From assembly GCF_004010195.1 (NCBI RefSeq), contig NC_057752.1, positions 11,976,012-12,035,000 on the forward strand: a DNA stretch of 58,989 nt, in the 5' to 3' direction. Both the position numbers and the translations under genes were made by a program. The notes under the pieces are model-generated. The model was given only the letters and a program-made list of their open reading frames with translations, made no database searches and had not been told where the DNA came from. Shown here piece after piece: positions 641 to 58,287 of this stretch. How positions within the stretch are numbered: position 1 is the stretch's first letter; every line of letters starts with the position of its first letter. Origin of the DNA: Chiloscyllium plagiosum (Eukaryota).

Positions 641-740
641 AGATGGAAATGTGTTGCTGGAAAAGCGCAGCAGGTCAGGCAGCATCTAGGGAACAGGAGA
701 ATCGACGTTTCGGGCATTAGCCCTTCTTCAGGAATGAGGG
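641..740 (-). mobile_element. 100-bp PLE terminal-repeat insertion (family A) with hammerhead motif
   Basis: Perfect 13-bp TSD AGTTCTCTTTCTG at 628-640 and 741-753. Same sequence family as the repeat that ends the GIY-YIG element at 4333-5094. Confidence 0.88.
704..731 (-). ncRNA. Minimal type I hammerhead ribozyme motif (family A, intact core)
   Basis: CUGAAGA-A-GGGC-UAAU-GCCC-GAAA-CG-UC: both conserved boxes, a 4-bp helix II and a GUC cleavage triplet. Confidence 0.8.
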
Positions 741-2513
741 AGTTCTCTTTCTGGCAAGGTATGGTAAGTATTTGCCTGGCTTGTCACCATGCTCGTATAA
801 CCTTTGCTTTGCAAAAGCCAGCTCCTTCTTTGCCGTCTGCGTGAGCACGGAATTTAGTGCAGACCGCAGTGCCATAACCCTCTGTAGTTTGACCAACGAG
901 GGTCTGTCAAAATAGGCCTTCTCGGCTGCCTTCAACCGTTCTTCAAGGAGACGTTGCTGCTCACCCTTCTGCCGCTTCCTACTTGTGGAATATGAAATAA
1001 CTAACCCTCTGGCATAAGCTTTGGCAGTTTCCCAGAGAACAGATGAGCTATCAACCGAGTCTATGTTGATGTCTAGGAAAGCCCGAAATTCCCAAGAGAA
1101 ATACTCCACAAACGTACTGTCCATGAGAATAAAGGGGTCCATTCGCCAGTACCTTGAATCCACTGTAACATCCTTAATCTTAACCATGAGGTACACTGGA
1201 GCATGATCAGAGATGGCAATATTACCAATCGTACAGGATGCCACCAGATCCAGGGTTACCGCAGGGGTCAGAAATAAATCAATCCTCGTGTGACATCTAT
1301 GCTGATTGGAGAAAAACATGAAATCCCTACCTGTAGGGTGGAGACACCTTCAGACGTCCACCAATCCCAATTCCCCACACAAACCCAATAACTGTTTAGT
1401 TTGTGCAGAGGGTATCGAGGGACCTTTAGGCAACCTGTCTACTGTGGCGTCCATGAGGCAGTTAAAATCTCCCCCTATAATGATGTGCCGAGACTTGAGA
1501 CTTATCAGTTTAGAAAAAGCATCTACCAAGAATTTAAGAGGATGAGCTGGGGGACAACAAACATTTAAAATACCATATTCTTCCCTATTTATCAAGGCTT
1601 GAAGAATTACAAACCTCCCGTATGTGTCTTTAACATAGTCCAACAATTTAAATGAGACATTTTTCCTAACCAATATAGCCACTCCCCTACTTCTGGTATT
1701 AAATGATGAAAAATAAACTCGGTCAAAGCCATTCTGCTGTAATTTCAGATGCTCCTTGTCATCCAAATGTGTCTCCTGTAACAAAGCAATATCCACCTTC
1801 TCCTTTCTAAGGCTCAAGAGTACCTTCTTCCTCTTAATTGGTGAGTGACTTCCCTTGATATTCCAGGTACACCATTTAATCAAATCATTAGCCATAATCT
1901 TCTGCAATTACATTTAAATTCCAGAGAGGAGGAACCCGAACCACAAATTGCTGAGCCTTAGTGTCACATGGTCCACCAAATATAAAAACTACATAAACTA
2001 AAACCACTACATTTAACAATCATACAAAATTATTAAAAATAAAAAACAACAAAAACCAGAAAACAAACCAACATATAAAGTGCCAATAGCACTGAGTAGG
2101 GGAACTCACCCCCTGCCCGGAGGGGGCAACTACCCATCCCGAACTGCCCATAAATAGGCATCTAACCAGCTCAACCACCTTCACTTCTCCCAGCTAGAGC
2201 CGCATCACAAGCACAAAGTAAAAAGAATAAACACCCCATAGAATATCAATATGAATAAAATAAAAACATTCTTTCTTTTATGAATAAAAGGGGGAATATA
2301 TACCCCATCCATCCTTTGCTATGTCCTAACTTAGAAATTTAAAATGTACATCTTAACCACCGCCAGACATAGTTTGAACCAAATTATTATCAATGGACGA
2401 ATAAAAAAAAGGGGAAAAAAAACAAAGCTCCAACCAGATTTCCTCCATTTCTTTTACAGAATGATAAACGCATACCCAAGCAACGATATTTATACGTACT
2501 ACAATTGTTTAAA

Positions 2514-3315
2514 TTAGGTTAGTTTGTCCACAAAGTCTCTTGCCTTCTCCGATGTGTCAAAGAGATGCATGGATCTATCTAAGGTGATCCGAAGCACTGT
2601 CGGATATCTCAGGGAGTACTGAATCCCAAGCTCCTTCAGTCTTCTCTTAACACCATTGTACGATTTTCGTTTCTGGATCACCGCCGCTGAAAAGTCCTGA
2701 AAAAACATGATCTTAGACCCCTCGTAAATTAGGGCCTTTGGTTCCTTCCCCTGGAGTCTGGAAGCCTTCATGACTCTCTCCTTATCCCGGTAATGATGGA
2801 ACCGCACCAGGAAAGGACGAGGGCGTTGACCCAGACCCGACCTCCGTGCTGTGACCCGGTGAGCCCTATCTATCTTCAATCCTCTCATGTCAGTCTCCAA
2901 GTCAAGGAATTTCGGAAGCCAATCTTCAACAAATTCCGCAGGCCGCTTACCTTCCTTACCCTCGGGCAAACCGATGATCCGAATGCTTTTTCTCCTGCCC
3001 CTGTTTTCAAGATCATCCACTTGGTCACGCAAATTTCAGGGCTTGGATCTCTTCCTTGAATGAACTGGCATCAGCTTCCACCACTGTGATCCTGTACTCT
3101 ACCTCATCCGTCCTCTTCTCCAGGTCTCCCAGCTGCTGCTCATGCTTCTGCAGCATGAGAGAGACTGGAGCCAGCTTTTCTTCAATCTGTTTCCCCAGCA
3201 TCTCGCAAGATTTCGAGAGCTGGTTCACCAGGTCCTGGAAAGTAATCAGCTCTGAGGCTGCTGCAGGCTGAGCTGCAGGCCCGGCCTCGGATGCTCCTCC
3301 TCCCTTTTTAGGCAT
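2514..3315 (-). pseudogene. L1 ORF1 (coiled coil + RRM/CTD), one frameshift near 3030
   Basis: DDLENRGRRKSIRIIGLPEG, IDRAHRV, RPRPFLVRFHHY, IMFFQDFS and YSLRYP are typical L1 ORF1p motifs. Confidence 0.9.
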
Positions 3316-3480
3316 TTCTGGACAGCTGAAAATACAGGTTAGTCAATTTTTAAATGTTTTTTGGGGCTCCACAATCTTTCCAACGCCCCAAGAAATCCTG
3401 ATGACCTGGGTTGGGTGGGTTAAAGGACCGTCCTGTTCCTGCTGCGATGCAAAGCTCTGCAGTGTGATCTTCTTAGATCG

Positions 3481-3490
3481 CCGCCATCTT
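3481..3490 (-). promoter_or_regulatory. YY1-type motif at the L1 5' end (internal promoter)
   Basis: AAGATGGCGG lies 8 nt from the element start. Confidence 0.6.
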
Positions 3491-3510
3491 AGATCCCCAG
3501 AAAGATATTT

Positions 3511-3828
3511 TTAGATTAGATTCCCTACAGTGCAGAAACAGGCCCTTCGGCCCAACAAATCCACACCGGCCCTGCGAACAGTAACCCACCCAGATCCATT
3601 CCCCTATTCCCTACTAATGCACCTATCATTATGGGCAATTTAGCATGGCCAATTCACCCGACCTGCACATCTTTGGACTGTGGGAGGAAACCGGAGCACC
3701 CGCAGAAAACCCACACAGACACTGGGAGAATGTGCAAACTCCACACAGACAGTTGCTCAAGGCTGGAATCGAACCTGGGTCCCTGGCGCTGTGAGGCAGC
3801 AATGCTAACCACTGATCCACCATGCCGC
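3511..3828 (-). mobile_element. HE1-type tRNA-derived SINE
   Basis: A-box/B-box head (TGGATCAGTGG ... GGTTCGATTCC), core TGTGTGGAGTTTGCACATTCTCCC, CR1-like tail ending in (AATCT)n. Confidence 0.9.
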
Positions 3829-4332
3829 TGGGGATTTCAGTTAGGACAGTGAGGTTCTAGAACATGATTAATATTAGGTACGGGCATAAAGGTGCATAAA
3901 TCCCCAAGGCCTGATGAGATTTATCCCAGGTTGCTATGGGAGGCAAGGGAGGAGATTGCTGGAGATATTTAATACTTTGCTGGCCACAGGTGAAGTGCTG
4001 AATGACTGGAGGATAGCTAATGTGGTTCCTTCGTTCAAGAAGGGCAGCAGGGATAGGCCAGGTAATCACAGATCAGTTAGTCTGATGTCAGTGGGAGAGA
4101 AATTAGTGGAAAAAGATTCTGTCGGACAGGTTTAATTAATTTGAAAGGCAGGGATTGATCAGGGATAGTCAGCACACATTTGTTGAAGAGAGATCCTGGC
4201 TGACAAATGTAATCCAGTTTTTTGAAAAGGTGACTACATAGTGATGACAGTAGTGCAGTTGATGTGGTTTACATGGAATTCTGAAGGCCTTTGACAAGGT
4301 CCCACATTGAAGGCTGATCCAAAATTCTGGAT

Positions 4333-5094
4333 TAGAGTGGTGCTGGTAAAGCACAGCAGTTCAGGCAGCATCTGAGGAGCAGGAAAATCGACGTTTCGGG
4401 CAAAAGCCCTTCACCAGGAATAGAGGCAGAGTGCCTGAAGGGTGGAGAGATAAATGAGAGGAGGGTGGGGGTGGGGAGAAAGTAGCATAGAGTACAATAG
4501 GTGAATGGGGGTGGGGATGGAGGTGATAGGTCAGAGAGGAGGATGGAGTGGATAGGTGGGAAGGAAGATAGGCCGGTAGGACAGGTCATGGGGACAGTGC
4601 TGAGCTGGAAGTTTGGAACTGGTGCGAGGTAGGGGAAGGGGAAATGAGGAAACTGGTGAAGTCCACATTGATGCCCTGGGGTTGAAGTGTTCTGAGGTGA
4701 AAGATGAGGCATTCTTCCTCCAGGCGTCGGTGGTGAGGGAGCGGCGGTGGAGGCCCAGGACCTCCATGTCCTCGGCTGAGTGGGAGGGGGAGTTGAAATG
4801 TTGGGCCACAGGGCGGTGTCCCAGAGATATTCCCTAAAGCGCTCTGCGAGGAGGCGTCCAATCTCCCCAATGTAGAGGAGACCGCATTGGGAGCAACGGA
4901 TACAATAAATGATATTAGTGGATGTGCAGGTAAAACTTTGATGGATGTGGAAGACTCCTTTGGAGCCTTGGAAGGAGGTGAGGGAGGAGGTGTGGGCACA
5001 GGTTTTACAGTTCCTGCGGTGGCAGGGGAAGGTGCCAGGATGGGAGGGTAGGTTGTTGTGGGGGGACGTGGACCTGACCAGGTAGTCACGGAGA
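4333..5094 (-). mobile_element. Penelope-like element, 5'-truncated: GIY-YIG endonuclease end + terminal repeat
   Basis: Minus-strand frames give IIYCIRCSQCGLLYIGE, VAQHFNSPSH and LIFHLRTLQPQGIN. A hammerhead-like motif at 4390-4417 has a mutated CUGGUGA box. Confidence 0.92.
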
Positions 5095-5099
5095 ATTCA

Positions 5100-8760: not shown

Positions 8761-8799
8761 TAGTTGTGGATTAGAAGACAGGACGTTAGAATTTGGTGT

Positions 8800-16100: not shown

Positions 16101-16441
16101 TTTAGGGTGTAGGTTTGCTCGCTGAGCTGTAGGTTTGATATCCAGATGTTTCATTATCTGGCTAGGTAACATCATCAGTGGCGACCTCCAAGTGAACCGA
16201 AGCTGTTGTCTCCTGCTTTCTATTTATATATCTTTCTCCTGGATGGGGTTCCTGGGGTTTGTGGTGATGTCATTTCCTGTTTGTTTTCTGAGGGGTTGAC
16301 AGATGGTATCTAGATCTATGTGCTTGTTTATGGCATTGTGGTTGGAGTGCCATGCCAGAGAATTCCTAGAGGCCTGGCACTCCAACCACAATGCCTACAC
16401 CCTAAACCCTACACCCTGAGCTACAAACCTTCACAAACCTT
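16101..16441 (-). mobile_element. PLE fragment (family D) with hammerhead motif
   Basis: 13-bp imperfect TSD (16088-16100, 16442-16454), an REFLEAWHS endonuclease-end motif, and an internal inversion. The minus-strand motif is CCA-CUGAUGA-UGUUAU-...-AUAAU-GAAA-CAUC-UGG-type at 16142-16181. Confidence 0.75.
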
Positions 16442-19075: not shown

Positions 19076-19162
19076 ATAAATGAAAAATTAAAATGTTTTG
19101 TGTTGAGGCTATAAATGGACATTAGTAGTATGAATCCATACAGACTAAAAAAAAACTTTAGT

Positions 19163-19399
19163 AGAAAGTGAGGACTGCAGAAGCTGGAGATCATAATCGA
19201 GAGTGTGGTGCTTAAAAAAAAGCACAGCATGTCAGGAGGCATCCGAGGTTTCGGGCAAAAGTCCTTCATTACGAATGAGGCTTGTGGGCTGGGGCTTATA
19301 AAGAAATGGGAGGCGGCTGGGGGGGGATGGAGCTGGGAAAGCAATAGGATGGGGGAGAAGGTGGAGCGGAGAGATAGGAAAGGCAATGCACAGGTCAAG
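19163..19399 (-). mobile_element. PLE family A terminal fragment
   Basis: Starts AGAAAGTGAGGACTGCAG; imperfect TSD A9CTT(T/A)(A/G)GT at 19147-19162 and 19400-19415. Confidence 0.8.
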
Positions 19400-20044: not shown

Positions 20045-21310
20045 AAATGACTGAAAACAACAAATGCTGGTGATCATAGTGGGTCAGGCAGCATCCATGG
20101 GGAGACAGCAAACTAATGTTTCTAATCTAGATGACTCTTCATCAGAGCTGATGTGTGGAGGGGATAGCATTTATGCAATGGAGTGGGGGAGGGCAGTACT
20201 GGTGGAGAAAGGATGTTCATAGTTCAGATTAAGTGATCAGAATGGGAGAACAATGGTGTGTCTAAGTGCCAGACTGGGAAGGACAGACAGTCCCGCTGGA
20301 GTAGGGGAAGGGGAGAGAACTCATGGTGACAGACAATGTAACAAGTAAAGCTAAAAGAAATGGGTTCACAATGTGAAGGTATTGAACTCACCAAGTCCAG
20401 AAGGTTGTAAAGTGCCTAGTTTGAAGCGCTGTAGCATGCTGAGGACAGAGAAGCGTATATGCAAGCAGGACCCTGTGTTAAAACGATCTGTTACAGGAAG
20501 GTCAAGGTCACACTGCACACAGAGCATGAGATGTTCTGCAAAGTGTCACCCAATCTATGTTTGATTTCTCCAATGTACAGTCGGCCACATTGGGTGTAGC
20601 AAATATGATAGGGAGAAAGTGAGGACTGGAGATGTGTTGCTGGAAAAGCGCAGCAGGTCAGGCAGCATCCAGGGAACAGGAGAATCGACGTTTCGGGCAT
20701 AAGCCCTCCTGAAGAAGGGCTTATGCCCGAAACGTCGATTCTCCTGTTCCCTGGATGCTGCCTGACCTGCTGCGCTTTTCCAGCAACACATCTCCGGCTC
20801 TGATCTCCAGCATCTGCAGACCTCACTTTCTCCAGAAAGTGAGGACTGCAGATGCTGGAGATCAGAGTCGAGACTGTGGTGCTGGAAAAGCACAGCAGGT
20901 CAGGCAGCCTCCAAAGAGCAGGAGAATTGATGTTTCAGGCAGAAGCCCTTCATAAGGAGTGGTGAAGGGGTTCCTGACAAAGGGCTTCTGCCTGAAACTT
21001 GACTCTACTGCTCCTTGGATGCTGCCTGACTTGCTGTGCATTTCCAGTACCACACACTCGGCAGCAAATACAATTACACAAGATTGGATGAAATGCTGCT
21101 CCACCTGGAAAGACTGTTTCGGCCCTTGGATGGTGAGCAGGGAGGACGTGAAAGGGCAGGTATTGCACCTTCTGCGGTTACATGGGAAGGTGCCATGGGA
21201 AAGGATGGTGGTGTTGGTGGTCGAGGAATGGACTAGTGTATCCCAGAGGGAATGATCCCTGCGAAATATGGACAGGAGAGTGAGGGGGGAAGATGTGTTT
21301 AGTGCTGGCA
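20045..21310 (-). mobile_element. PLE (family B) GIY-YIG end + terminal repeat, hosting two nested family-A fold-backs (20611-21060)
   Basis: TFPCNRRRCNTCPF and CGRLYIGE motifs; degenerate hammerhead at ~20115-20150; nested TSDs. Confidence 0.85.
20709..20736 (+). ncRNA. Minimal hammerhead ribozyme motif (family A, intact core)
   Basis: CUGAAGA-A-GGGC-UUAU-GCCC-GAAA-CG-UC. Confidence 0.8.
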
Positions 21311-21859
21311 GAATGCCATGTATTTTTATGGCGAGTTCCGTTGAACTACTGGTTAATGGTAAGGTGCAGTTAATGGTAACCCCATGGAAATTGATAGTGG
21401 GAGATTCAATGTTGGTAACATCACTGATGATTAGATTGTGATGGTCATTGCCTGGCACTTGTATGACATGAATGCTGCTTGCTCACAAAAAAAAAGAGAC
21501 AAATATAAAAGGAGACTCTGAGGTTAATTTCTGTGACAGATTGTCCTAGAAATATGGGAATAAAGATACCTGTTAAGGGACAGGCATTCAAAACAAGGGA
21601 GAATCCCTTAAATACAGGACAGCCTGGGTCCCACTGATAGGCTGCCAAATTCCTTCCCACAAGTTTGAAGTTACACTTTGAGACTGAAAATGCTGGAACT
21701 TCATTGAGTGTGTTTCTTACAGTTCTTCATGACAGAAACATTGTTCAGCATTGATGTACATCCACATGACAATTAGTTCTTAGCTCTTATAAATACTTTC
21801 TTTTTAAAAAATCTCCATCCCAATATAACTGTTCCAATCATTAATTTTCTTTTCAATAG

Positions 21860-23619: not shown

Positions 23620-26600
23620 ACATAGATAATAATCCCCTATACACTAGCTATCTTCTTTATGCATAGTAATAAGCTTAACAGTATTTTATACAAATAACTT
23701 AATACATAAACTAAGAATTTAGCCACTATTTATATATACTGGCTCACCTTCAAGCCTCTTTGGCAATTAGCAGCATGTGGTAGAGTAAAATTCATAACGT
23801 GTAACAATTTACATCATTCTATCACAACACAGTCTGGGTTCATTCATTTCTTGGCTTCTGCTGCAGGAGCCTAGAGTCCATAGTTAGCTATTCCCATTCA
23901 CCAGACCTATTTCCATAGCCGTCTAAATTCATCACTTTAAAATGTATAGCCAGCTCTCTTTTGAAACCTCCATCACTCCCCCAAGCAGCGCATTCCAAAT
24001 CCTAACAATTCTGAGTAAAAAGGTTTTTCCTCACCTGACTCCTAGCTCTCTTGCTGACAGTCTTGAAATTGTGACCCCTAGTTAGACATGCTAAATTGTC
24101 GAAATAGAATATCCTTCTTTACCCTGTCAAAATTGTTCATAATTTAGAAAACATCATTAAAACTTCACCTCTTAATCTTCTTTGCTCCAAGGAGAATAAC
24201 CCTAATTTCTCTATTGCTTTCCTTGTATATAAAATTCTTCATTCCTGGTATTGTTCTGGTAAATCTCCTTTGAAACTTATCCAGGGCTTTAACATCCTTC
24301 CTTAAATAAGGTGCCCAGAACTGAACACAATACTCCAAATGTGGTCTGACCAATGATTTTTAGAGGTGTAACATCACTTCTGAAGAAAGGTCACTGGACC
24401 TCAAAACATTAATTCCAATTTCTCTCCACAAATGCTGCTTGACCTACTGAGGTTTTCCAGCAATTTCTGGTTTTGTTTTGGATTTCTAGCCTCCTCAGTT
24501 CTTTGGTTTTTCTGCAGCATCACTTCCTTGCTTTTATACTCTATGTCTCTATTTATAAACCCAAGGATCCTATAAGCATTAACAACTGTTTTGACTTGCC
24601 AGCCCACCTTCAGAGAATCATGCATGTGAACCCCTCCTGTACTCCCCTCAAAGTTATATCAATGAGTCTGTATTGTCTCTATGTCTTTCTTCTACCAAAA
24701 TGCATTACCTGACATTTCTCCCAGTAATCCCCAAAAGTTTGTTTGAGTTCATCACTGATATCGACAAAGCTCTCACTTCTCTTCTGGATGTCTGTGCTCA
24801 ATTAGGCCTACCTTGCCTGGTGTGTGTGGCCTCATACAAAAGGTGTTTTGGATGTTACATGTAAAGGTCCCATGCTAGTAGTTGTGCAATGTTCTCCCTT
24901 TCCCTTGTATGCAATCCTGGTGATGTCTATGTTCAGTGTCCGAATCTCTGCAATACAAATTAGAATGCTGTTTGTCCGAAAACCACACAAGGCATGTTTA
25001 TTTGAATATACAGAGTCGGGGGTACACAATTATTTCTTTTGTCTGCTAACATCTATTCAGAGTGGTACATACGAGGCTTCCCTCTTTCTCAACAGCATAC
25101 AGAAGGTCCTGTTTGAATTTGAACCATGCTCACACTCAGGTAATGCTGGCATTTTCCAACTCGAAGACTTGTAACCCATTTTGAGTTTGTGTTATGATCA
25201 GGATCCCCAGGACCAGGGCCACAGTCTTTCCTGGGGTTCCCTTAAAATCATTGTTAAACCAGACCTTAGTCAATTGCTGTAATTGACAATTTGAAGTCTC
25301 TCTTCCTGCAGAGCAAATACTCTATCTGCTCAGGACCTGTTCTTGCTTAGCTTGCTTGAGGTTTGCCCTCAACTGTTTGATCATCCATTGGCCATAGATG
25401 CCGCACAGGGACCTATTCTGCTCCTTACTGTCATCATCTCTTTTTCCTCGGATGATCTTGTTGATGGTCCTGGTGTGCTCTCTAGCACAGTTACTATGTT
25501 GGTTGTCTGTGATTTTCTTTTATTTGCCCTCGGCATCTTGCTGACTGTTCAGATTAATTTTATCCAAGGGCTGTTTAACTTGCTTGCTTAAAATTCTGAA
25601 CTTATTGTCCAAATTAGTCACATCAAGAGTATTGACTGTGGACACTCCTGCTCTGTAAGCTGTTGCCAAATCATTCAAAATCTTATACAAATCCCGCTGG
25701 CCTGGGTCTGGCCTCCCCCCTTGTCAATCTCTGTTTCCATCCTAATAGCCAATGAGTCAAATACAAGTATAATTTCTGAAGTTGGGAAGGGCACCATTCT
25801 GGAAGCTGGGTTCAGGATTTATCTAACCCCGCTGGTACCAATTCACGGTGTACATTGTCGTCCAGGGGTTTTGCCTGTGTGTTTTAAAATCACCCTATTT
25901 TGTGGTGCTCAGGTAGTCCTCGGACAAACACATGCACTTTCTGGCTGCTTTTAGCCCTTTTTAAATTTTGTATCGGACATAGTTCCCCCTTCGACCTTCC
26001 TGGGGCATTGTTGCCCAATTTTACAGCCCTTTCTCTGGACCGGTAGCCAAACATACCATTTCAGTACATCTGTTTGTGGAGAACGCTACCTGTCACCCAT
26101 GGTGTCTATACTCAGGTGGTAATACTTTGACTCTCGTTTGTCTTTCTATACATAACCCGTTGGTTGTTACAGCCAAACATCACGGATTGTTGGGATGGAC
26201 CTACAAAGCACCATCCCCACATTTGCCTGCCTCCAATGGGACAAACCACTGAGAGCCGGGATATGTGTACTCTTGCCCAATTATTGCTTCTGACAATCAC
26301 ATCCTGGTATCCAGCCAATGATTAGACCAACAGACTGTATGTCATCAACCTGAAGAGGGGATCAAAGTGGCATCTATTGTTATGCTAATGTAATATCTGA
26401 CCAAGTTTAGATATCTCCCCACCCTTCTCCATCTGTGGAGATATTTTTCTAACTCTGTTTGGTTCTGGTCTGCATTCAGCTAAACTCCGTCCAAAATTTA
26501 CTTTTATTGAATTCTCTCAATTCCCCTCTTGTCAGTCAATTATGTTTGTGTCAGGCCCTCACTTCAAACTGGCAGGGTGGAAGTGGGTTGGTGCGATGCA

Positions 26601-27629: not shown

Positions 27630-27806
27630 ATTCTGACTTAGAGGCATTCAGTCATAATCCCACAAATGGTAGCTTCGCACTATTGGCTCCTCAGCCAAGC
27701 ACATATACCAAATGTTTGAACCTGCAGTTCCTGTCATACTGAGCAGGATTACTATTGCAACAACGTATCATCAGGGTAAAACTAACCTGTCTCATGATGG
27801 TTTAAC
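27630..27806 (-). pseudogene. 28S rRNA fragment (3' domain including the sarcin-ricin loop), non-functional
   Basis: The reverse strand contains GAGACAGGTTAGTTTTACCCT, AGTATGACAGGAAC (canonical AGTACGAGAGGAAC) and GGGATTATGACTGAATGCCTCTAAGTCAGAAT, with several CpG-type transitions. Confidence 0.92.
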
Positions 27807-27809: not shown

Positions 27810-28548
27810 GTAATTCTTTCTCATTCTTGGTATATCTATTCTCCAGCTTGTTCTTCCATTTCCTCCCAGTCTATCTTTTTATCACCATCCCCATCTGATT
27901 CTGTTGTCCCAAATGCGCACATCATTCCCATTTGCATGGAAGGTTGCCACTTTTTCAATCTCGTGCTGGAGTGTTCAAAGCACGGGCTCTATTTTCTTTG
28001 CCTGCTCTGTAGGTTTCTGCATTTCTCAGTGAGCTCATCCATAGCTTTTTTGGGCTGTACCCTGATCACTGACCGTGTGTTGCGCCTTCTGGTGTACTCC
28101 ATCACACTGGGTCTGAAACTGTTCCAAGTGTACTGCCCACCTGGTTCTTCTGCTCTGCTGCTTTGACTCTTAATTTCTCCACTTTCTGCTATATTTCTTC
28201 CACTCCCTGACTTAGCTTCACCACCTCCCGTTCTCTGTCTCTCAGCTGCTCCACACAGCTGGTTATTACTATCCTGATGAAGCGCTTTTGCCCGAAACAT
28301 CAATTTTCCTGCTCCTCGGATGCTGCCTGACTTGCTGTGCTTTTCTAGCACCACACTCTCGACCTTTATCACGATAGTTTGTTAAGTTTTAAAGCACTCT
28401 TACTTTCAGCTTTCCATGCCACCTTCCTGCATTTCTGTCCCACAGGTCCCAGACCTAATATTTGCTCACTGCAATGGTTGACTCACTTGGGCCACTTCTT
28501 ATTTAGGTATTTCCTTAGTATCTCTTCCCACTCTGGGCACTGTGCCAT
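27810..28548 (-). pseudogene. gag-like N-terminal remnant, interrupted by a PLE mini-insertion (28273-28365)
   Basis: MAQCPEWEEILRKYLNKKWPK*, then ITSCVEQLRDRER and coiled-coil-like segments. It lies downstream of the LTR-like repeat. The assignment is by resemblance only. Confidence 0.45.
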
Positions 28549-29478: not shown

Positions 29479-29651
29479 GCAGAAAGTGAGGACTGCAGAT
29501 GCTGGAGACCAGAGCTGAAAATGTGTTGCTGGAAAAGCACAGCAGGTCAGGCAGCATCCAAGGAGCAGGAGAATTGACATTTCGGGCATAAGCTGAAGAA
29601 GGGCTTATGCCCGAAACGTCGATTCTTCGGTACCTTGGATGCTGCCTGACC
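29479..29651. mobile_element. PLE family A fold-back mini-element
   Basis: Perfect 13-bp TSD TGTAAAGTGCATA (29466-29478, 29652-29664); intact hammerhead core at 29593-29620 (+). Confidence 0.88.
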
Positions 29652-33429: not shown

Positions 33430-33780
33430 TTAAAAATCTTGAGAAACTCAGCAGGTCTGGCTGCATCTGTGGAAAGAAAACAGTGTTAGCGCCGAGTCCA
33501 GTGAGCCTTCTTCAGGGCTGATAGTAGCAAGGAAAAGATGGCATGTATGCTGATGACAGGTGATGAGGGGGAAAAAGGAGTAAGCAGACAGGTGTAGATG
33601 CGAGCCCAGAGGGAGACAAAGAATGTTAGACAGACAACGGCATAGACAATAGTAAGGAAAGGAGAAAAGCTGATAATCAGAAGTGCAGGAAATGGGTCGG
33701 ACACTCCTAAGGACCGTTTCAACAACAGTGGCAGGGAATCTTCAGTTGAAGTAAAAGGTGGACATTTCTGAGGTTTCCTG
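33430..33780 (-). mobile_element. PLE family B terminal fragment
   Basis: GAAACTCAGCAGGTCTGG...GAGTCCAGTGAGCCTTCTTCAG (degenerate hammerhead on the minus strand). Confidence 0.7.
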
Positions 33781-34319
33781 TGGAAGAATAAATTGTTTAG
33801 GAAGCCAGTATGAAGCTTAATGATTAAAATTTAGTAAAATGAAGGATAAAGTGGCTTAAGGATTAACATTTATTATTATTAACAACATAGGTGTTTTAGT
33901 TAAAAGCAGTAACCAGTACAAAAACAAACAACTTTTTGGTCATAATCCATGAATCTTAGCAAGTACTGGCCTTTTGGCCAGAATTCCTGGGAAAGAACAG
34001 ACAGCCTCCGTGACCTGAACTAGCTGTGAACAGTACGAGCTATAAAACTGCAGTTTTCATTCATTCCCTACCAGTTTGGCTCATTATCGTAACTCGGTTT
34101 GCTACTAAAATGAAGAAGTCACGTAAAGACTATCCATGATTACGTTATAAAAATACTATTTTGAATAACTTGGAGATGCTACGTATATATGTACAGAATC
34201 TCTACCCTTGCATGCAAGAATAAAAACAAAAGACTGGCTTTAGACAAAGATATCATTTGTTGGAGTCTTGTTTCAGGTCAGTAAAACTTCGACACCCCCT
34301 GGCATCATCATAAAAGATT

Positions 34320-35981: not shown

Positions 35982-36520
35982 TCAGATGCCTTGCAGAATG
36001 GCCATGCCTGAATGTGTCAAGAGCTCTCCATCCCATAGCGCAAAGGCTGGAACTAGTGGCATCTTGAAATCAGCTGTTATTGTGCTAACAACCGCCGCTT
36101 TCTCAACATCTATTAAACTAAGCTCCTTGTCGTCACAGTCCAGAAGAAAGCCCACTCGATCAGGCTTTCCAAAGAAGTCAACCGGTACCATCTCACTGGA
36201 AGACATGGAGTACCACTTCCTCTGGAGATAGGCATAAACCCAGGAGCAATCATTGGCACCAATACATTCTTCTCGTGACATGTTTGCCTCTGCCACCCCA
36301 ATTCGGAACTCTTGAGATCGTTTCACTGTTACTTCCCAGTAATGTCTCCCAGTTGAAAGAGTCACATCAGCCAAGACCACAGCCCACTCTCTGAAGCGCT
36401 CAGGGTTTTTTGGCACTTTACTTGGGTCAATGCCAATCATACGGTAGATAACTCCAGTCTCTTTTTTGAAAAGGTCTAAGCAACTGTGAGCGGTCTTCTC
36501 ATCCAATTTGAAATTTAAGT
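35982..36520 (-). CDS. SPRYD4: SPRY domain-containing protein 4, coding exon 2
   Basis: Polypyrimidine tract + tag acceptor at 36521, phase 1. FKLDEKTAHS, ERFREWAVVLAD, GRHYWEVTVKRSQ and PAFALWDGELLTHSG match SPRYD4. Confidence 0.96.
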
Positions 36521-37839
36521 CTATAAATGAAAAAAGAAATGCTACACACTGCTCCCCAAAGTACATTGCTTGAGACACATTCCCAGTTAGCCAGTGGTAA
36601 GCAATTCCTTTTAAGCACACAGATTTGTTACCAAATGTCTTCTCAGCTTCAATTATGAACATTTGAGGCTCAGTGTGGGATGGGTGAGATAGAGACTGCA
36701 GGTTGAGGGATAGTCAGATGGTTACGCTGGGAGTGGGAATCAGAAGAAGTGGCCTAAGGTGAGGAATGAAATGATAGGTGTATAGGGGTGAGCAAGAAGA
36801 CTGTTAGGGTGTTGAGAAGATGGGTCACAGAGTGAGGAGTTGTGAACAGGCTCAGGGAAGGAGAAAAAGGTCAGAATCAAAGGATTTTAGCTTGGTGGAT
36901 GTGAAACAGAGATACAAAGCTTCAGGTGAGGAGGGACGAAAAGGAGAATGGGCTCGACATGTGTCCAGCATTTCTCTCAGAGCTGCAGCAGTGTGGCGAT
37001 TGAAATTCAATCTAGGGGGTAGGGTAGCAAAGAGGAAAACGAGGGGATCTTGTTGTGGATAGATAGTGAGAGATTGTTTCCATTAAAATCCTGTCAGGTG
37101 GATGGAGAAGTTTCCATGGCCATTACTTAGAGAGCAAGGAACAATGTCCTGTTCATTATTGCTCAATTGGCATCAATAAAACAAACTTCAATTAATGTCA
37201 ACTGTTAATTTATCTACAAATGCTGTTCGACAAGTGTTTTCTATTCCTATTTTCCCCCCCAAAAAAATGAGCTTGCTGTTGTTATGGGATCTTGTTGTAT
37301 ACCCATTTCTAACATTACAATGGTGACATTTCAAAGAGTGCAAGATGTACATAAAGAACAGGAACTCAGCTGATCAGGGAGACAATTTTAGTGAGAATAC
37401 TGAGGTCTGGCACTACTGCAGCAGCCACTTCTTAGCTGGAACCAGGTGGAAGGCCAGAGCCAATCTGCAGCCCTGCACAAAGGGCAGAATCTTCCAAGGG
37501 TGAATTAAAACTGACTCCCCACTCCACTAGTGACGCCCAGTCACATGCCCATGCAATCTTGCCAGAGCCATTTGCCTCCAGAAGTGCATTAACACATCCT
37601 ACTGGACCAAGGAATTAGTCCACAGTTGTTCAGCTGGCAGTCCCAGTGGGAGAGGCAGGTGCCATTGCAGCAGACAGGAAGAAGCGAGGGTATCTTTAGA
37701 TAGCGATACAGATGTTGAAAAAAAAGTTTAAAATGATTTATGGTGGGGGATTTGCTGCATTGACAGGCCAGTTTGCTGTTGCAGCTGTAGTTCTGCAACA
37801 GAAGTGGTAACAGATTGGGGCGTAAATAAAATCAGAAGC

Positions 37840-38050
37840 AAAAATGGAGTGTGCTGAAAAAGCTCAGCAGGTCTAGCAGCACCTGTGCAGAGAAATCAAA
37901 GTTAAATGTTTTGGGTCTGGTGACCCTTTCTCAGAACTGGGAACTGAAGTTATGAGGAAGGGTCACCAGATCAGACCTGAAACATTAACTCTAATTCTTC
38001 TTCACAGATGCTGTCAGATCTGCTGAGCTTTTCCAGCAATTTCAATTTTT
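37840..38050. mobile_element. PLE family B fold-back in the SPRYD4 intron
   Basis: AAAAGCTCAGCAG...GTGACCCTTTCTCAGAACT is followed by its reverse complement; degenerate hammerheads. Confidence 0.8.
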
Positions 38051-38118
38051 GCAGGAGTGTAAGTAAAAGAGGCATTGCTGAGAGGCTGTCTCCAAGAACT
38101 TGTTAGTCTTTGCCTGCA

Positions 38119-38473
38119 AGGAGAAAGTGAGGACTGCAGATGCTGGAGATCAGAGTTGAAAAGGTGTTGCTGGAAAAGCGCAGCAGGTCCAGCAGCATCC
38201 AAGGAGCAGGAGAATCGACGTTTCAGGCATGAGCCCTTCTTCAGGAATGAGGAAAGTGTCCAGCAGGCTAAGATAAAAAGGTAGGGAGGAGGGACTTGGG
38301 TGAAGGGACGTTAGAAATCTATCACATTTCCAACACCCAAGTCTCTCCTCCCTACCTTTTTATCTTAGCCTGCTGGACACTTTCCTCATTCCTGAAGAAG
38401 GGCTCATGCCCAAAATGTCAATTCTCCTGCTCCTTGGATGCTGCCTGACCTGCGCTTTTCCAGCAACACATTC
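38119..38473. mobile_element. PLE family A fold-back in the SPRYD4 intron
   Basis: ~150-bp inverted arms; TSD AG(T/A)CTTTGCCTGCA at 38105-38118 and 38474-38487; hammerhead core at 38217-38244 on the minus strand. Confidence 0.88.
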
Positions 38474-39130: not shown

Positions 39131-39239
39131 TTTCCTCTTTCAGAAGCAAATAGAAATTACTGGAGAAACTCAGCAGGTCAGGCAACATCTGTCGCGTGAG
39201 AGAGATACTGTTAACATTCCGTGTCTGATATAATTCCTA

Positions 39240-40955: not shown

Positions 40956-40959
40956 TGAA

Positions 40960-45090: not shown

Positions 45091-45091
45091 T

Positions 45092-46440
45092 GCCTGAGTG
45101 AGTGTGCCTGAGTGCATGTGTCTGAGTGCCTGTGCCTGAGTGCGTGTGTCTGAGTGCGTGTGTCTGAGTGAGTGTGTCTGAGTGAGTGTGCCTGAGTGAG
45201 TGTGCCTGAGTGCGTGTGTGTATTTGTGTACAAGTGCCTGAGTGCGTGTGCCTGAGTGCGTGTGCCTGAGTGAGTGTGTCTGAGTGCGTGTGTCTGAGTG
45301 AGTGTGTCTGAGTGAGTGTGCCTGAGTGAGTGTGCCTGAGTGCGTGTGTGTATTTGTGTGCAAGTGCCTGAGTGCGTGTGCCTGAGTGCGTGTGCCTGAG
45401 TGAGTGTGTCTGAGTGTGTGTGCCTGAGTGCGTGTGTGTATTTGTGTGCAAGTGCCTGAGTGCGTGTGTCTGAGTGCCTGTGTCTGAGTGCGTGTGTCTG
45501 AGTGAGTGTGCCTGAGTGCGTGTGTCTGAGTGAGTGTGTGTATTTGTGTGCAAGTGCCTGAGTGCGTGTGCCTGAGTGAGTGTGCCTGAGTGAGTGTGCC
45601 TGAGTGCGTGTGTCTGAGTGAGTGTGCCTGAGTGCGTGTGCCTGAGTGCGTTGCCTGAGTGCGTGTGCCTGAGTGCGTGTGCCTGAGTGAGTGTGCCTGA
45701 GTGAGTGTATCTGAGTGAGTGTGCCTGAATGAGTGTGCCTGAGTGCGTGTGCCTGAGTGAGTGTGCCTGAGTGCGAGTGCCTGAGTGCGTGTGTCTGAGT
45801 GAGTGTGCCTGAGTGAGTGTATCTGAGTGAGTGTGCCTGAGTGAGTGTGCCTGAGTGCGTGTGCCTGAGTGAGTGTGCCTGAGTGCGTGTGTCTGAGTGA
45901 GTGTGCCTGAGTNNNNNNNNNNNNNNNNNNNNNNNNNNNNNNNNNNNNNNNNNNNNNNNNNNNNNNNNNNNNNNNNNNNNNNNNNNNNNNNNNNNNNNNN
46001 NNNNNNNNNNNNNNNNNNNNNNNNNNNNNNNNNNNNNNNNNNNNNNNNNNNNNNNNNNNNNNNNNNNNNNNNNNNNNNNNNNNNNNNNNNNNNNNNNNNN
46101 NNNNNNNNNNNNNNNNNNNNNNNNNNNNNNNNNNNNNNNNNNNNNNNNNNNNNNNNNNNNNNNNNNNNNNNNNNNNNNNNNNNNNNNNNNNNNNNNNNNN
46201 NNNNNNNNNNNNNNNNNNNNNNAGTGTATCTGGTGAGTGTGCCTGAGTGAGTGTGCCTGAGTGCGTGTGCCTGAGTGAGTGTGCCTGAGTGCGTGTGTCT
46301 GAGTGAGTGTGCCTGAGTGAGTGTGCCTGAGTGCGTGTGTCTGAGTGTGTGTGCCTGAATGCGTGTGTGTAATTGTGTGCAAGTGCCTGAGTGCGTGTGT
46401 CTGAGTGCATGTATGTGTGTGTGCGTGCGAGTGTCTGAGT
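45092..46440. repeat. 14-bp minisatellite YCTGAGTGMGTGTG with interspersed 18-bp spacers; gap N 45913-46222
   Basis: Directly visible tandem array. Confidence 0.97.
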
Positions 46441-47509
46441 CCACGTGTGTGTGTGTGAGAGAGTGTGTGCCTGATTGAGTGTATGCACATGTATAGGTCA
46501 ATGTGTGACATAGGGCCTATTACCAGCCTTCCTTCATTGTGACTAGGTCAAAATTTACCCTCTCTAGGGCAGTTAGCAATGGGCAAGAAATGCTGGCCTC
46601 ACCAGTGACATGCACATCTCAGGAAAGAAGGAGTGAAACCCTAATGGCCATGGAGATTTGCTCCGTGAGGTGCTGAGTCTCTCTCTCTCTCCCTGTCTGT
46701 ACAATCTATAACCTGTAGCTGCCTCAGATTATCACCTTGGCTTCACATTAAAGCCCAGGCTCTCTCCCAGTCTCCCACTCCCTGCAGACTGTTAAAGTCT
46801 CTGTGCTAACAGACAGGACCCGCAGGCAGAATTCGAGCTAACACCGGCCTGTTTGAAGCATTTGATGCTGAACCCAAGAAGGGTATGACACGAAATGTAG
46901 GCCCTGACCCCACCCACCCTCAGCCGAGACTCAGGGCACTCTGCTGGTGTTTGAGCTTGGTCATCAACGCATACACTGTTGGGTCTTTGGTGTTCAGGAA
47001 GAGTCACACAGCCATGAATTCCTCCCCCCACCCCTCGTTCAAAGTGACATTTTGCTTCCCATGTGGCAAGATCCCAATACTCAGCTTCTCTTGAAACGAC
47101 AATGTCTCCATCCCATGATCCTTCAGCGAAAGAGGTCAAGGTGTCTGAAGAGTGAAGCAGATTACTACTTTCCATTCATTCCGTGGAGGCATTTGTTGCC
47201 TCTCCCTCCTTGCCATTTCAATGGGAGTGTCGTGCTTGTCCAACTTCTGAGGGCAGTTAATGTTGAACCACTTTGGCTGTGGGGGTGGAGTCACGTGGAG
47301 GTCAGACTAGCTCAGGCTAAAAGCTGTAGGAGGTGGAGTAGGCCATTGCGTCTGCTCCGCCAGTCAATGAGATCATGGCTGGTTTGACCATCCTCAGCTC
47401 CGCTCTCCTGCCTTTTGCTTATAACCATAAGTAGAGGCACTCATTCTCTTCCGTCACTCGGCTGATGTGGAATCCCTCCTGATTTTCCCACATGCCATTG
47501 GCATCTAGG

Positions 47510-50261: not shown

Positions 50262-50447
50262 AAAAATGCCAAAGAACTGTGGATGCTGGCAATCAGAAAC
50301 AAAAACAGAAATTGCTGGAAAAACTCACGTCTGGCAATCAGTTATAATCAGTTCTGAAGAAGAGTCACTGGACCTGAAATGTTAACTCTGCTTGCTTTTT
50401 ACAGATGCCTAATCTGCTGAGTTTTTCCAGCAATTTCTGTTTTTGTA
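50262..50447. mobile_element. PLE family B fold-back with hammerhead motif at 50350-50387 (+)
   Basis: AGUU-CUGAAGA-A-GAGUC-ACUG-GACCU-GAAA-UGUU-AACU; the outer arms AAAAACAGAAATTGCTGGAAAAACTCA are inverted. Confidence 0.8.
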
Positions 50448-50559
50448 TCTTGTCTGAATTATTGCTTCTTAGCAAGCATAATAAACCATCTGATATTCTT
50501 TATGAATGGTCAACTGCCAATATGAGGTAATTATGGTCCCAGATCCCAAAATCCAGTGG

Positions 50560-52634: not shown

Positions 52635-55600
52635 TTCATAGCTCCTTGAAAGTGGAGTCACAGGTAGATGGGATAGTTAAGAAGGCGTTTGGTGTGCTTT
52701 CTTTTATTGGTCAGAGTATTGAGTAGAGGAGTTGGGAGGTCATGTTGCAGCTGTACAGGATATTGGTTAGGCCACTTTTGGAATATTGTGTGCAATTCTA
52801 GTCTACTTCCTATAGGAAGGATGTTGTTAAACTTGAAAGGGTTCAGAAAAGATTTACAAGGATGTTGCCAGGGTTGGAGGATTTGAGCTACAGGGGAATG
52901 AGCTGCCAGAGGATGTGGTGGAGGCTGGTACAATTGCAACATTTAAGAGGCATTTGGATGGGTATATGAATAGGACGGGTTTGGAGGGATATGGGCCGGG
53001 TGCTGGCAGGTGGGACTAGATTGGGTTGGGATATCTGGTCGGCATGGTCGGCTTGGACCGAAGGGTCTGTTTCCATGCTGTACATCTCTATGACTTGTAA
53101 ACATCCGGCCAAAACATGATGAATAGCACCACCTAGAGGAAAGCTATGAAGTGCAAAGGTGAACTTTTTCTCCCCCCAGAAATTGAAGTGAACATTTTGC
53201 AACACAAAATAAAAACTGAAAGTTCTAGAAGCGTGCAACACATTAATCCTGTTATGTAGGTTTATATAGAATATTCAACAAAGAAATAGGCTATTCAGTT
53301 CAGCTTGTGGTCCAAACAAGCCTCCTGTCACCTCTCTTCATCTAATCCCATTGGTATTCCTTTCTTCTTCATGTGTTTTGTTTCCCCTTAAGTGCATCCA
53401 TGCTCAGGAAAAAAGGTTGATCGAGGGCATTTGGATTCCCAGGACGCATCTAGTAAGGGGTCACATAAAAGATTACTGCAAATGGTAGGAGCTCACAGTA
53501 TTGGGGGTAATGTATTAACATGCATTGGGGATTGGTTAACATTAAAGAAAGAGAGTCAAGATGAATGGGTCTTTTTCTGGTTGAAATGTGTGGTGCTGTA
53601 AAAGCACAGCAGGTCAGGCAGCATCCGAAGAGCAGGAGAGTCGACATTTTGAGCATAAGCTCTTCATCAGGAATGTAGGGCGGCCCAAGAGGGCTGAGAG
53701 ATAAATGGAAGCGAGGTGGGCCTGGGGGGAAGGTAGCTGAGAATGCAATAGGTAGATGAAGGTGGGGGGTGATGGTGATAGGTGAAAGAGCTGGGTGGAG
53801 CAGATAGATGGGAAAGAAGATGGACAGGTAGGACAGTTCAAGATGGCGGTGCTGAGTCGCGAGGGTTGAATCTGGGATAAGGTGGCGGGAGGTGAGATAA
53901 GGATTGATTTCTCCAGTATCTGCAGTCCTCACTTTCTCCTCCTTTTCAGGTTGGAAAGACGCAACTAATGAAGTGCCGCAAGGAACAGTCCAAGGCCTCA
54001 ATTATTTGCTATCTCTGTTAATGATTTGGAGGATAGGACAGAGAGTAATGTATCATTGCTGACGATACTAAAGTAGGTGGGAGAGAGGGCATGTTGTGAT
54101 GAGGTCATGAGGAATCTGCAAGAGGATATAGATAGGTTGAGTGAGTAGGTAGAACCTAGAAGATGGAGTTCAATGTAACAAAGTGTGAGGTCATGCACTT
54201 TGGTGGAAGAATCAAAAGGCAAATTATTAAAATGGAGAGAGACTCCAAAAATGTGCAGCATGGAAGGATCTAAGTATTCTCGTGTATGAAACACAAAAAG
54301 CTAGCATGCAGGTGCAGCGAGTAATCAAGAAGACAAAGGTTGTAATAGAGAGAGGGATCGAGAGGGCTGGAGGGTAAAATAGAGAAGTCTTGTTCCAACC
54401 ACACAGGATTTTGATGAGGCTACACCTGCAGTACTGTGTACAGTTTTGGTCCTCATATTTAAGAAAGGATGTCCTGACATCCTTAAAATATTTAAAGAGG
54501 AGGGAGATAGATTTTTGAAATATTGAGGAGTTGGAGGCTGTGATAGGCTACTACAAAACATTACTGAAAATAAGAGCAGGAGGAGGCCAGTCAGCGCTTC
54601 AAGCCTGCTCCGCCATTCAACATGATCATGTCTGATCATCCAACTCGGTACCCTGTTCCTCTTTCTCCCCATACCCTTTGATCCTTTAGCCCGAAGAATT
54701 TTATCTAACTCTTCCTTGAAAACATTCTGGCCTCAACTGTTTTCCATTGCAGAGAATTACACAGACTCACTGCTGTCTGGGTGAAGAAACTTCTCCTCAT
54801 CTCAGTTCCTAAATGACCTCCCCCATATCTGTAAGACTGTGGCTCCTTGTTCTGGACTCCCTGGTCATCGAGAATATTCTTTGCATCCTCACTGTCCACT
54901 GGAGTCGTGCCAGATGATTGGAGAGTGGCAAATGTTATTCCCTTGTTCAAGAAAGGCAATAGGGATAATCCTGGGAATTACAGACCAATCAGTTTTTCAT
55001 CAGTGGTGAGCAAAGTATTGGAGAGGATTCTGAGGGACAGGATTTATGATTACTTGGAAAACCATAGTTTGATTAGAGATAGTCAGCAATGATAGTCATT
55101 GAAGGGCAGGTCATGCTTCACAAGCCTTATTGAATTCTTCAAGGATGTGACAAAACACATTGATGAAGGTAAAACATTGGATATGGTGTATATACGGATT
55201 TTAGTAAGGTGTTTGATAAGGTTCCCCATGGTCGGCTCATTCAGAAAGTAAGGAGACATGGGATACAGGGAAATCTGCCTGTCTGGATGCAGAATTGGCT
55301 GGTCCATAGAAGACATAGGATGGTGGGAGATGGAAAGTCATTGATGAAGGTAAAACATTGGATGTGGTGTATATACGGATTTTAGTAAGGTGTTTGATAA
55401 GGTTCCTTATCAAACGGCTCATTCAGAAAGTAAGGAGACATGGGATACAGGGAAATCTGCCTGTCTGGATGCAGAATTGGCTGGTCCATAGAAGACATAG
55501 GATGGTGGGAGATGGAAAGTATTTAGCTTGGAGCTTGGTGACCAGTGGTGTTCCACAGGGATCAGTTCTGGGACCTCTGCTCTTTGTGGTTTTTATAAAT

Positions 55601-56736: not shown

Positions 56737-56767
<31 letters not shown>

Positions 56768-56806
56768 GAGAGAGCAGCCCTATGGACTGGTAAGATTATG
56801 GCTACT
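56575..56806 (+). mobile_element. tRNA-derived SINE (second family); an inverted head copy lies at ~57420-57515
   Basis: TAGCTCAGTTGG A box, GGTTCAATCCC B box, flanking TTTCTG(T/A)CT duplication. Confidence 0.8.
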
Positions 56807-57149
56807 TGTCTTTTCTGACTAATGAAGAACTTAGCTTATCTCAATTGTTGCTTGAAAAACTGAATATTTCTTGCAGACGGTTGACTGCCCATATTAGGAA
56901 ACTGTGGTCCCTCTTTTCTCATGTGCAATTTGTTTTTGCCTTTGAGCGATCAACGGTCACTTCAGCAACTCTGTTTTATACACTATGAAAGCTCTTAAAA
57001 CTTGTTATATTCTTGGCTAAATATTATACTTGTACCATATCAATTTTTTTGGTCACGCTTTGCAGATAATCTGAAACATCCTGAATCCTCAGATTTTATA
57101 CTATACTTTACAACATTATAAGCCTCCTCTTTTAACTATAGGGAAGCTC

Positions 57150-57390
57150 AGTTGTTAGTGCCAGGGATCTGGGTTCTGTTCTAGCCTCAGATGATTAACT
57201 ATTCCGAGTTTGCACATTCTCCCCGTGTCTGAGTGGGTTTCTGCCAGGTGCCTTCCAGAGTCCAAAGGTGTGCAGATTAGGTGGACTGACCATGGGAAAT
57301 GCAGGGGTCAGGGGATAGGTTGGGATGCTTTTTGGAGAGTCGGTGTAGACTCGTTGGGCCAAGTGGATTCCTTGTAGAGATTCTATGATT
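57150..57390 (+). mobile_element. Degenerate HE1-type SINE
   Basis: GAGTTTGCACATTCTCCCCGTGTCTG core. Confidence 0.8.
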
Positions 57391-57611
57391 ATCCTCGGGT
57401 CAAGTCACCAGAAATGGGACCTTCACGGTGACTTCAGCCAAAATGGGAATTGAACCCATGCGGTTGGTGTCATTCTGCATTGCAAACCAGCTAACCATCC
57501 AACTGAGCTAATTGACAGCCACCCCCACTGCATTCAGACAAAGAGTCTTTAATGGTTTTCCATAATTATTCCTTGCACGGAACATGTTTGATTTTGTATG
57601 ACTATTATATT

Positions 57612-57929
57612 CTCTTGTAGAGGGGGGAAGTGAGCTTCTTCAAGGAAGGCATCCATGCAAGAGGATTCGCAGTAGGTTAAAATCTTCTAGGAGAAAGTGA
57701 GGACTGCAGATGCTGGAGATCAGAGCTGAAAATGTGTTGCTGGAAAAGCGCAGCAGGTCAGGCAGCATCCAAGGAGCAGGAGAATCGACATTTCGGGCAT
57801 GAGCCCTTCTTCAGGAATCATGCCCGAAACGTCGATTCTCCTGCTCCTTGGATGCTGCCTGACCTGCTGCGCTTTTCCAGCAACACATTTTCAGCTCTGA
57901 TCTCCAGCATCTGCAGTCCTCACATTCTC
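57612..57929. mobile_element. Young PLE family A fold-back (near-perfect ~120-bp arms)
   Basis: ~57690-57801 versus ~57818-57930 are reverse complements; TSD CTATTATATT at 57602-57611 and 57930-57939. Confidence 0.9.
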
Positions 57930-58287
57930 CTATTATATTATTTGTTCCACTTTCTCATTGATTGACTAGGCCAGCATTTATAGTCCATCCCTGACTGTCC
58001 TGCAGAAGATGGCGGCAGGCTGACTTCTTGAACTGCTGCAAGGTGGTGTCGGGGGTACCAACAGTGCTGTTAGAGAGGAAGTTCCAGGATTTTGAGTCAG
58101 CAGCGCTGAAGGAAAAGCAATATATTTCCAAGATTTCAGTAAGGCATTTGATAAGGTTCCCCACGGCAGGCTCATTCAGAAAGTTAGGAGGGATGGGGAT
58201 ACAGGGAAATCTGGCTGTCTGAATACAGAATTGGCTGGCTGAAAGAAGACAGCGAATGGTAGTGGATGGAACATATACTGCCTGGAG

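Follow-up and report, generated by a model that had tools for sequence, protein, structure and literature searches.

Inner ends of truncated Penelope-like insertions cluster at the front of a hammerhead motif in Chiloscyllium plagiosum DNA

A 58,989-nucleotide (nt) stretch of repeat-rich vertebrate DNA from Chiloscyllium plagiosum (contig NC_057752.1, positions 11,976,012 to 12,035,000; referred to below as the window) raises the question of why short insertions of Penelope-like retroelements (PLEs), single or folded back head to head, break off beside a hammerhead ribozyme motif. A profile scan of the window (E<0.01) detects 24 PLE arms in 16 insertions, which fall into three lineages, A1, A2 and B; the reversed-window control yields nothing below E 0.31. 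Although the profiles were built from hammerhead-bearing arms of the window, they also picked up an arm consisting of 30 nt of tail alone, which shows that short arms do not escape them altogether. The hammerhead at 16178 was excluded from the 24 arms; it lies in a motif on the reverse strand at 16140-16190 that belongs to a further, unrelated PLE-like family. Element positions refer to the sense strand with the C of CUGA as 0, the hammerhead spanning -4 to +31 and the predicted cut falling after +27 (+27/+28).

The inner ends of the arms, read by eye from the sequence, gather at the front of the hammerhead. Eleven of the 24 lie at -8 to 0 and four at +7 to +15, which places 15/24 between -8 and +15; seven others lie beyond -60 (two of them being lower bounds), two are at +61 and +95, and none falls between -9 and -60. 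Three single-arm stubs, which the earlier note had described as beginning 0-10 nt before CUGA (at 740, 24380 and 28273), indeed do so: the A1 stub at 641..740 on the reverse strand runs from +92 to -8, the forward-strand lineage B stub at 24381..24517 starts from CUGA with an inner end at +1 to -7 (its target equals element -7 to 0 at 7/8 bases), and the forward-strand A2 stub at 28273..28365 runs from -2 to +92. Six of the eight fold-backs pivot at the same front. Four of these, whose inversion points had been placed in or beside the hammerhead at ~20705, ~29590, ~57815 and ~37945, pivot at 20707 (20612..20833, A1, inner ends +7 / -2), 29593 (29479..29651, A1, +10 / 0), 57818 (57612..57929, A1, -4 / +12) and 37946 (37832..38058, lineage B, -5 / -4). 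The other two are an A2 fold-back at 20834..21060 (inner ends -5 / -3, a 9-10 nt spacer, pivot 20965) and a lineage B fold-back at 50270..50450 (inner ends ~ +61 / -7, pivot 50345), which is absent from the earlier note. Two pivot elsewhere: the A1 fold-back at 38119..38473 at ~65-80 nt upstream of CUGA (~ -65 to -80), and the A2 inverted insertion at 53584..53940, with non-overlapping arms (+88 to -235; +95 to +125), at -235/+95.

Measured against a simulated smooth decay, this clustering has a scan-statistic P<=0.0014 in a 24-nt window and P<=0.00015 in a 9-nt window, the latter both per arm and per insertion (9/16), with P values taken from the most null-friendly of the exponential and lognormal models tried. 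Inner ends scatter with a standard deviation of 7 nt, compared with 20 nt for arm lengths, and long and short arms share one end point, so the boundary is a position rather than a length. At the opposite side of the arms, two outer ends ~35-40 nt apart are favoured, at +123 to +125 and at ~ +85 to +95.

Public sequence data show the same boundary. The left arm of the A1 fold-back at 38119..38473 served as reference (38085-38324, 88% likeness) and was matched by 2,275 raw reads in X21, 63,216 DNA contigs in X1 and 2,291 contigs in X15, the last from another organism. Depth in X21 is flat near 940 (921-960) from +79 to +32 and beyond +32 falls through successive 8-nt bins of 871, 736, 639, 527, 291, 145, 124, 112, 102 and 94; single-base depth is 488 at +4 and 147 at -8 and decreases slowly beyond that. 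The loss per nucleotide in X21 is thus 0.0004 from +79 to +39, 0.081 from +7 to -9 and 0.013 from -9 to -41, and the same step appears in X1 (0.086, then 0.012) and X15 (0.121, then 0.0035); the loose-end letters at 38245-38252 fall outside the part listed for the step. The ratio of upstream to core depth is 0.115 in X21, 0.124 in X1 and 0.061 in X15, with which the 2/9 A1 arms that pass the boundary in the window are compatible, and a single exponential misfits the depth by up to 1.7-fold. The upstream sequence of A2 diverges from that of A1 at -5 to -9, and the A2 marker base at +4 is carried by 42/488 X21 reads and 2.7% of X1 depth, a share too small for A2 divergence to make the step. Outer ends in these data pile at +125 to +123 (38119-38121), and the flanking sequences beyond them are unlike one another, with an agreement of 0.34-0.45 in most rows. 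Splicing at the AG at -24 was considered as the A1 boundary and rejected, as depth has no step there. An excess of sense-strand reads is seen near the tail in X21.

The proposal that breakpoints cluster at the ribozyme is therefore borne out by both the window and the public reads, in which a smooth length decay does not fit; what does not stand is a cluster across the ribozyme, since the peak lies ~30 nt beyond the cut, where the hammerhead has its 5' edge. An insert boundary at the cut itself was considered and rejected: 0/24 arms end at +27/+28 and the bin that holds this site loses only 6% of X21 depth, which argues against cleaved RNA ends setting the insert boundary. The inserts span the predicted cut, as had been pointed out, and the template was thus uncut or rejoined there; use of an uncleaved template has been published in vitro for an Anolis element (PMC11167929).

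Target-site duplications (TSDs) flank most of the insertions that were named earlier as having them. Exact repeats of 13 bp at 628/741 (628-640 and 741-753), 13 bp at 29466/29652 and 10 bp at 57602/57930 bound the insertions at 641..740, 29479..29651 and 57612..57929, and 38119..38473 lies between 14-bp repeats with one mismatch at 38105/38474. For the stub at 24381..24517 the repeat is 9 bp exact at 24372/24518, or 14 bp with two mismatches if counted from 24367/24513. Of the six sites given TSDs of 10-16 bp, five are thus firm, and the pair at 28263/28366 is weak, falling under the script thresholds and matching at 8/10 bases by eye. Two additional TSDs were found at 19147/19400 (12 bp, exact) and 53573/53943 (14 bp with two mismatches), and none was found for 50270..50450. 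The stub at 641-740 sits within an L1-like remnant and splits its reading frame, with a duplicated RKRT in both halves.

These insertions are, on sequence grounds, truncated PLEs, putatively of Neptune type. The longest copy, an A2 element at 4330..5095 on the reverse strand, carries the end of an open reading frame (ORF), the 3' untranslated region, the hammerhead and a short outer end. Its segment 4833-5093, joined to the repeat at 4330-5095, codes for a CX4CXXC linker and the GIY-YIG motif IYCIRCSQC..YIGE, and its translation is 84% identical to the protein P0001; the nearest named protein match to the fragment is from the bamboo shark Chiloscyllium punctatum (84% over 87 aa). The Pfam GIY-YIG model scores 23.4 bits with P0002, over the cut-off of 22.6, and 21.7 bits with P0001, under it, and has no match in the 87-aa window piece itself. 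A CX2-5CXXC linker is reported as diagnostic of Neptune and Nematis elements (PMC8557442). The linker and GIY-YIG motif are present in lineage A2 only, A1 and B being tied in through repeat homology, and a pseudo-long terminal repeat (pseudo-LTR) with a hammerhead, an inverted 5'-truncated copy, a 30-40 bp tail at one end and a TSD are all found, so that linker, GIY-YIG motif and repeat structure together point to a Neptune/Nematis-type assignment. We found 94 long relatives and aligned 24 proteins. No PLE relative was found in viral contigs, a 27-nt tail pattern had 0 matches in metagenome and viral contigs, and a search for breakpoints in predicted proteins that translate the repeat found nothing. 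A 22-nt degenerate pattern matched 12 metagenome, 5 prokaryote-genome and 0 viral sequences; these were taken as chance and set aside, because profile matches at all 17 loci barely exceed the pattern. The insertions, of ~93 to 355 bp in the window, agree with the 90-350 bp given earlier for PLE insertions, which are real; the elements themselves are commonplace PLE remains rather than a novel class of mobile element.

One copy of the hammerhead motif lies at 38213..38248 on the reverse strand, where the 5' strand of stem I (-4 to -1) is followed by CUGAAGA, an extra A, a 4-bp stem II, GAAAC and GUC, with the predicted cut between 38217 and 38216. These features, namely CUGANGA, an extra base, stem II, GAAA, a palindromic core, UH and a short stem I, match a putative minimal type I hammerhead of the pattern described in PMC4209133, for which self-cleavage after position 17 is predicted. 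Rfam gives no hammerhead match (0/17 matches at E<=1), and the motif rests on the minimal-hammerhead pattern. Stem II varies among the lineages yet stays paired, and in 5/5 A-type fold-back pairs that overlap there both arms carry the identical loop variant, which fits one RNA or one active donor.

What, then, places the inner ends at the front of this motif? We lean, by a modest measure, towards a reading in which the ends pile 0-8 bases before CUGA because the template RNA begins there, at a presumed RNA start, and the reverse transcriptase (RT) runs off its 5' end. In this genome the PLE protein would for the most part load onto its own message at the tail motif, close to the RNA 5' end, and would copy no more than the ~95-130 nt leader, up to a start between about -4 and -8. 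Priming on a single strand would leave a simple stub. If both strands were primed, the two resulting cDNAs would be joined head to head, and during end joining one of them would often lose 7-15 nt or have its end copied again; the ~1 in 8 arms that run further may come from RNA that starts upstream, either by tandem read-through or as the 3' repeat of the full message. Stubs made in this way are predicted to be dead on arrival, because they would lack a stretch, lying downstream of the start sites, on which the Anolis protein depends.

Much of this scheme has a counterpart in the Anolis PLE protein, which is reported to nick and extend both target strands, to begin copying at two internal RNA sites, which delimit the tail, and to prefer uncleaved RNA as template (PMC11167929). 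Internal starts, two-strand extension and an uncleaved template would explain why the window copies have two outer ends, why their arms meet head to head and why the cut site is intact. In the same study, product size followed the RNA 5' end, truncations tiled from -126 of the ORF start having shortened the product, and ribozyme mutants left the product unchanged (PMC11167929).

Support from the window for a run-off start is circumstantial, and consists of an initiator-like pyrimidine-A, a likely start codon and doubly copied end pieces. All 11/11 arms that keep -5/-4 have pyrimidine-A there, with -5 unpaired in stem I. The hexamer TCAKTY, the initiator consensus, is matched in 5/11 against a background of 0.0014 per base; the copies are related, and these amount to ~three independent cases. 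In the fold-back at 57612..57929, whose left arm extends to +202, a likely ORF start lies at ATG +162, and its peptide MPSLKKL weakly resembles the N-terminus MPNLTKL of P0043 and P0022, so that the stubs would correspond to the 5' leader. Three of the eight fold-back junctions (37935-37948, 50337-50353 and 20962-20970) hold a second copy of a 6-8 nt inner-end piece. Both lineage B fold-backs carry such a re-copied end piece, of 7 nt; copying passed twice over the last 6-7 nt and on each occasion stopped at nearly the same base (-6, -7). A stronger version, in which transcription would start on the first base of stem I, the ribozyme would clip only a capped 31-nt leader, and the telomerase-like enzyme would stop, re-anneal and re-copy 6-7 bases at a template boundary, is a decidedly unlikely extension; if true, tens of thousands of stubs would be a fossil map of 5' ends and would hold a trace of telomerase-like repeat addition in a retroelement.

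Several points weigh against the run-off reading. A start at the first base of the hammerhead is unlike the arrangement in Drosophila virilis Penelope, in which the reported start is at 371 and helix I begins at the intron end, 120 nt further downstream, or 45 nt in the spliced RNA (PMC2377424, PMC4209133). In each of the three lineages a pyrimidine tract ending in AG precedes the hammerhead by 2-24 nt (~38268, 4435, 53693, 33517 and 20147); these tracts resemble splice acceptors, such as the one at the D. virilis intron end, and would place the start at a more upstream position. An extra cap-derived G is not evident at the junctions seen, and the in vitro data come from a Poseidon and not a Neptune element (PMC11167929). 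In the public data, run X22 gave 0 reads that matched the reference, and ~43% of X21 depth goes gradually between +32 and 0, before the step; this requires trimming or aligner clipping at the private differences of the reference (38225, 38231), and a stall inside the ribozyme would fit too. The step could also partly reflect an A1-like subfamily with other upstream sequence. A handful of abundant transcripts skew X21, which comes from a single RNA sample; depth in X1 was obtained by summing contig word depths, and part of the events are missing from its counts. The table of positions at which many molecules start or stop was empty, which weighs neither for nor against an RNA start, as a poly(A) single-cell library is not designed to reveal such ends.

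The gradual loss would also fit an alternative that we consider unlikely, in which the enzyme, while copying a longer RNA, is halted by a barrier at the hammerhead. This is the stall of the earlier note with assistance from protein: the barrier would be the ribozyme itself, as a dimer or bound by protein, or else a telomerase-like template boundary immediately 5' of it. Losses start at +31, the 3' edge of the motif, and finish at ~ -8, 4/24 arms end at +7 to +15 in stem II, and the acceptor-like sites suggest longer RNAs; the Anolis ribozyme is reported to be protein-assisted (PMC11167929). Two copies would cofold through the palindromic core at -16.7 kcal/mol, yet no pivot lies at that core (+23 to +29), where a dimer would force a switch. 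The fold of the naked monomer is weak, with a 4-bp stem, and in 7/7 hammerhead segments is no better than shuffles (z -0.74 to +1.19, ~0), the hammerhead shape having -5.7 kcal/mol compared with a minimum free energy of -6.3 kcal/mol. The main step is at or past the first base of the motif, where the enzyme would already have unwound it, so a stall on the naked fold, as suggested in the earlier note, is unlikely, and products of the Anolis protein track the RNA 5' end past the ribozyme (PMC11167929). Snap-back on stem II and switching at the palindromic core were also rejected, as no junction is centred there.

The run-off step itself would be the same if the template were a linear non-autonomous donor starting near -4 and mobilised in trans, such as a SINE-like leader-only copy (SINE, short interspersed element) or a small retrozyme-like tandem; we assign this possibility only a slight probability. 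Short copies outnumber long ones ~7 to 1, no A1 copy in the window has ORF sequence on its upstream side, an X1 joint connects leaders head to tail (38251 back to 38117), and PLE-derived non-autonomous retrozymes have been reported (bioRxiv 10.64898/2026.07.22.740005). Yet the boundary is common to three lineages that also have ORF-linked or long copies, and the stubs stop at initiation sites downstream of which the Anolis protein needs RNA (PMC11167929). The window contains no tandem array of the unit: 0/7 of its tandem-repeat rows are the PLE unit, so the head-to-tail tandem with at least two complete hammerheads that marks a retrozyme is missing there, the one head-to-tail leader joint being elsewhere in the genome (X1). 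This joint, together with X1 joints linking 38150-38153 to 38119-38121, suggests that other parts of the genome carry leader dimers in head-to-tail order and duplicated tails.

A boundary made at the DNA level is most improbable. The GIY-YIG nuclease or host repair would cut or trim at ATT/GTT at -4 to -1, or palindrome centres would be deleted after insertion; the Anolis nuclease is reported to prefer 5'-ATT-3' (PMC11167929), A1 and A2 have ATT at -4 to -2, and asymmetric pivots, with one arm at -4 to 0 and the other at +7 to +12, fit centre trimming. In lineage B, which is without ATT there, the boundary is unchanged, simple stubs free of any palindrome end at the same place, and the TSDs found show no ATT rule.

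A fold-back element of miniature inverted-repeat (MITE-like) type amplifying as a unit, as the earlier note had also proposed, would account for small size, inverted arms and high copy number (63,216 X1 contigs) but is scarcely credible, as all 8/8 window junctions differ, none recurring at independent loci as far as seen, opposite-strand joints reach only 1-3 contigs at depth 4.5-10, or 1-4 reads, with none above single-locus depth among the joint rows listed and X1 counts incomplete, and TSDs vary from 9 to 14 bp where a DDE transposase is expected to leave a fixed length.

The other copies vary in their extent. A single-arm A2 copy at 19159..19399 (reverse strand), flanked by the TSD at 19147/19400, reaches ~ -128, and reverse-strand lineage B copies extend well past the hammerhead at 20060..20330 and past it at 33440..33700; a lineage B arm at 39140..39229 on the same strand ends at ~ +15 beside a CR1-type fragment, and this end may be secondary. 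The neighbouring A1 and A2 fold-backs at 20612-21060 touch at their tails, as though one had inserted at the tail of the other. The arms of 53584-53940 come together at the second start site without overlapping; inverted, non-overlapping arms are the geometry of L1 twin priming. The arm at 57612-57688 reaches 77 nt past the usual outer end and suggests a third start site further downstream. Decayed PLE ORF remnants lie at 21090-21330 and 34273-35037, the second of which resembles an RT region and is broken by a CR1-type fragment. Elsewhere the window holds a host exon with PRY and SPRY domains (35985-36620), a 154-nt 28S rRNA fragment on the reverse strand (27611-27764), a 182-bp tandem duplication within a LINE fragment (LINE, long interspersed element; 55158-55520) and a 14-bp satellite across an assembly gap (45091-46457).

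The role of the PLE hammerhead, and why copies land as inverted stubs, are questions that a sharp boundary at the ribozyme front narrows, and this boundary ties internal initiation in vitro to what fills a vertebrate genome. In the accounts available of Neptune/Nematis-type PLEs (PMC8557442, PMC3846280), insertions, like those of the window, are heavily truncated at the 5' end, with an inverted, likewise 5'-truncated neighbour joined head to head; common to both are also a tail of 30-40 bp at one end only, TSDs of ~8-14 bp, a pseudo-LTR hammerhead and a CX2-5CXXC linker before a C-terminal GIY-YIG domain. They differ in that most window insertions are without an ORF, and a fixed 5' boundary at the hammerhead is not described in those accounts. 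With the Anolis carolinensis Poseidon element PAc (PMC11167929, Frangieh 2024) the window elements would share two tail-matching internal starts, extension of both strands, an uncleaved template and the lack of RNA ends at the cut; PAc is of a different clade and its ORF begins inside the hammerhead, compared with the likely ATG at +162 here, and its text, in the part available, reports no genomic 5'-end peak. In the open-licence literature we found no report of a breakpoint peak at the 5' edge of a PLE hammerhead, the genomic-coverage figure of PMC11167929 lying outside that search.

The motif itself resembles the minimal hammerheads of metazoan PLEs (Cervera and De la Pena 2014, PMC4209133) in its short helix I, an extra base between 9 and 10.1, a G-C 10.1-11.1 pair and a palindromic core, and in being mostly solo, with opposite-strand pairs 100-700 bp apart. 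From the circular-template proposal, as set out in the portion of that paper at hand, no particular feature would be expected at the 5' edge of the motif, and the present data have no step at the cut site. Non-LTR retrozymes, reported from a cartilaginous fish (bioRxiv 10.64898/2026.07.22.740005), are likewise small, non-coding, hammerhead-bearing and PLE-derived, but they are described as head-to-tail tandems with at least two complete ribozymes, whereas those in the window occur singly or head to head. Uncleaved templates, tails and arms joined head to head have all been described before, and the peak at the hammerhead front is a refinement of known PLE behaviour.

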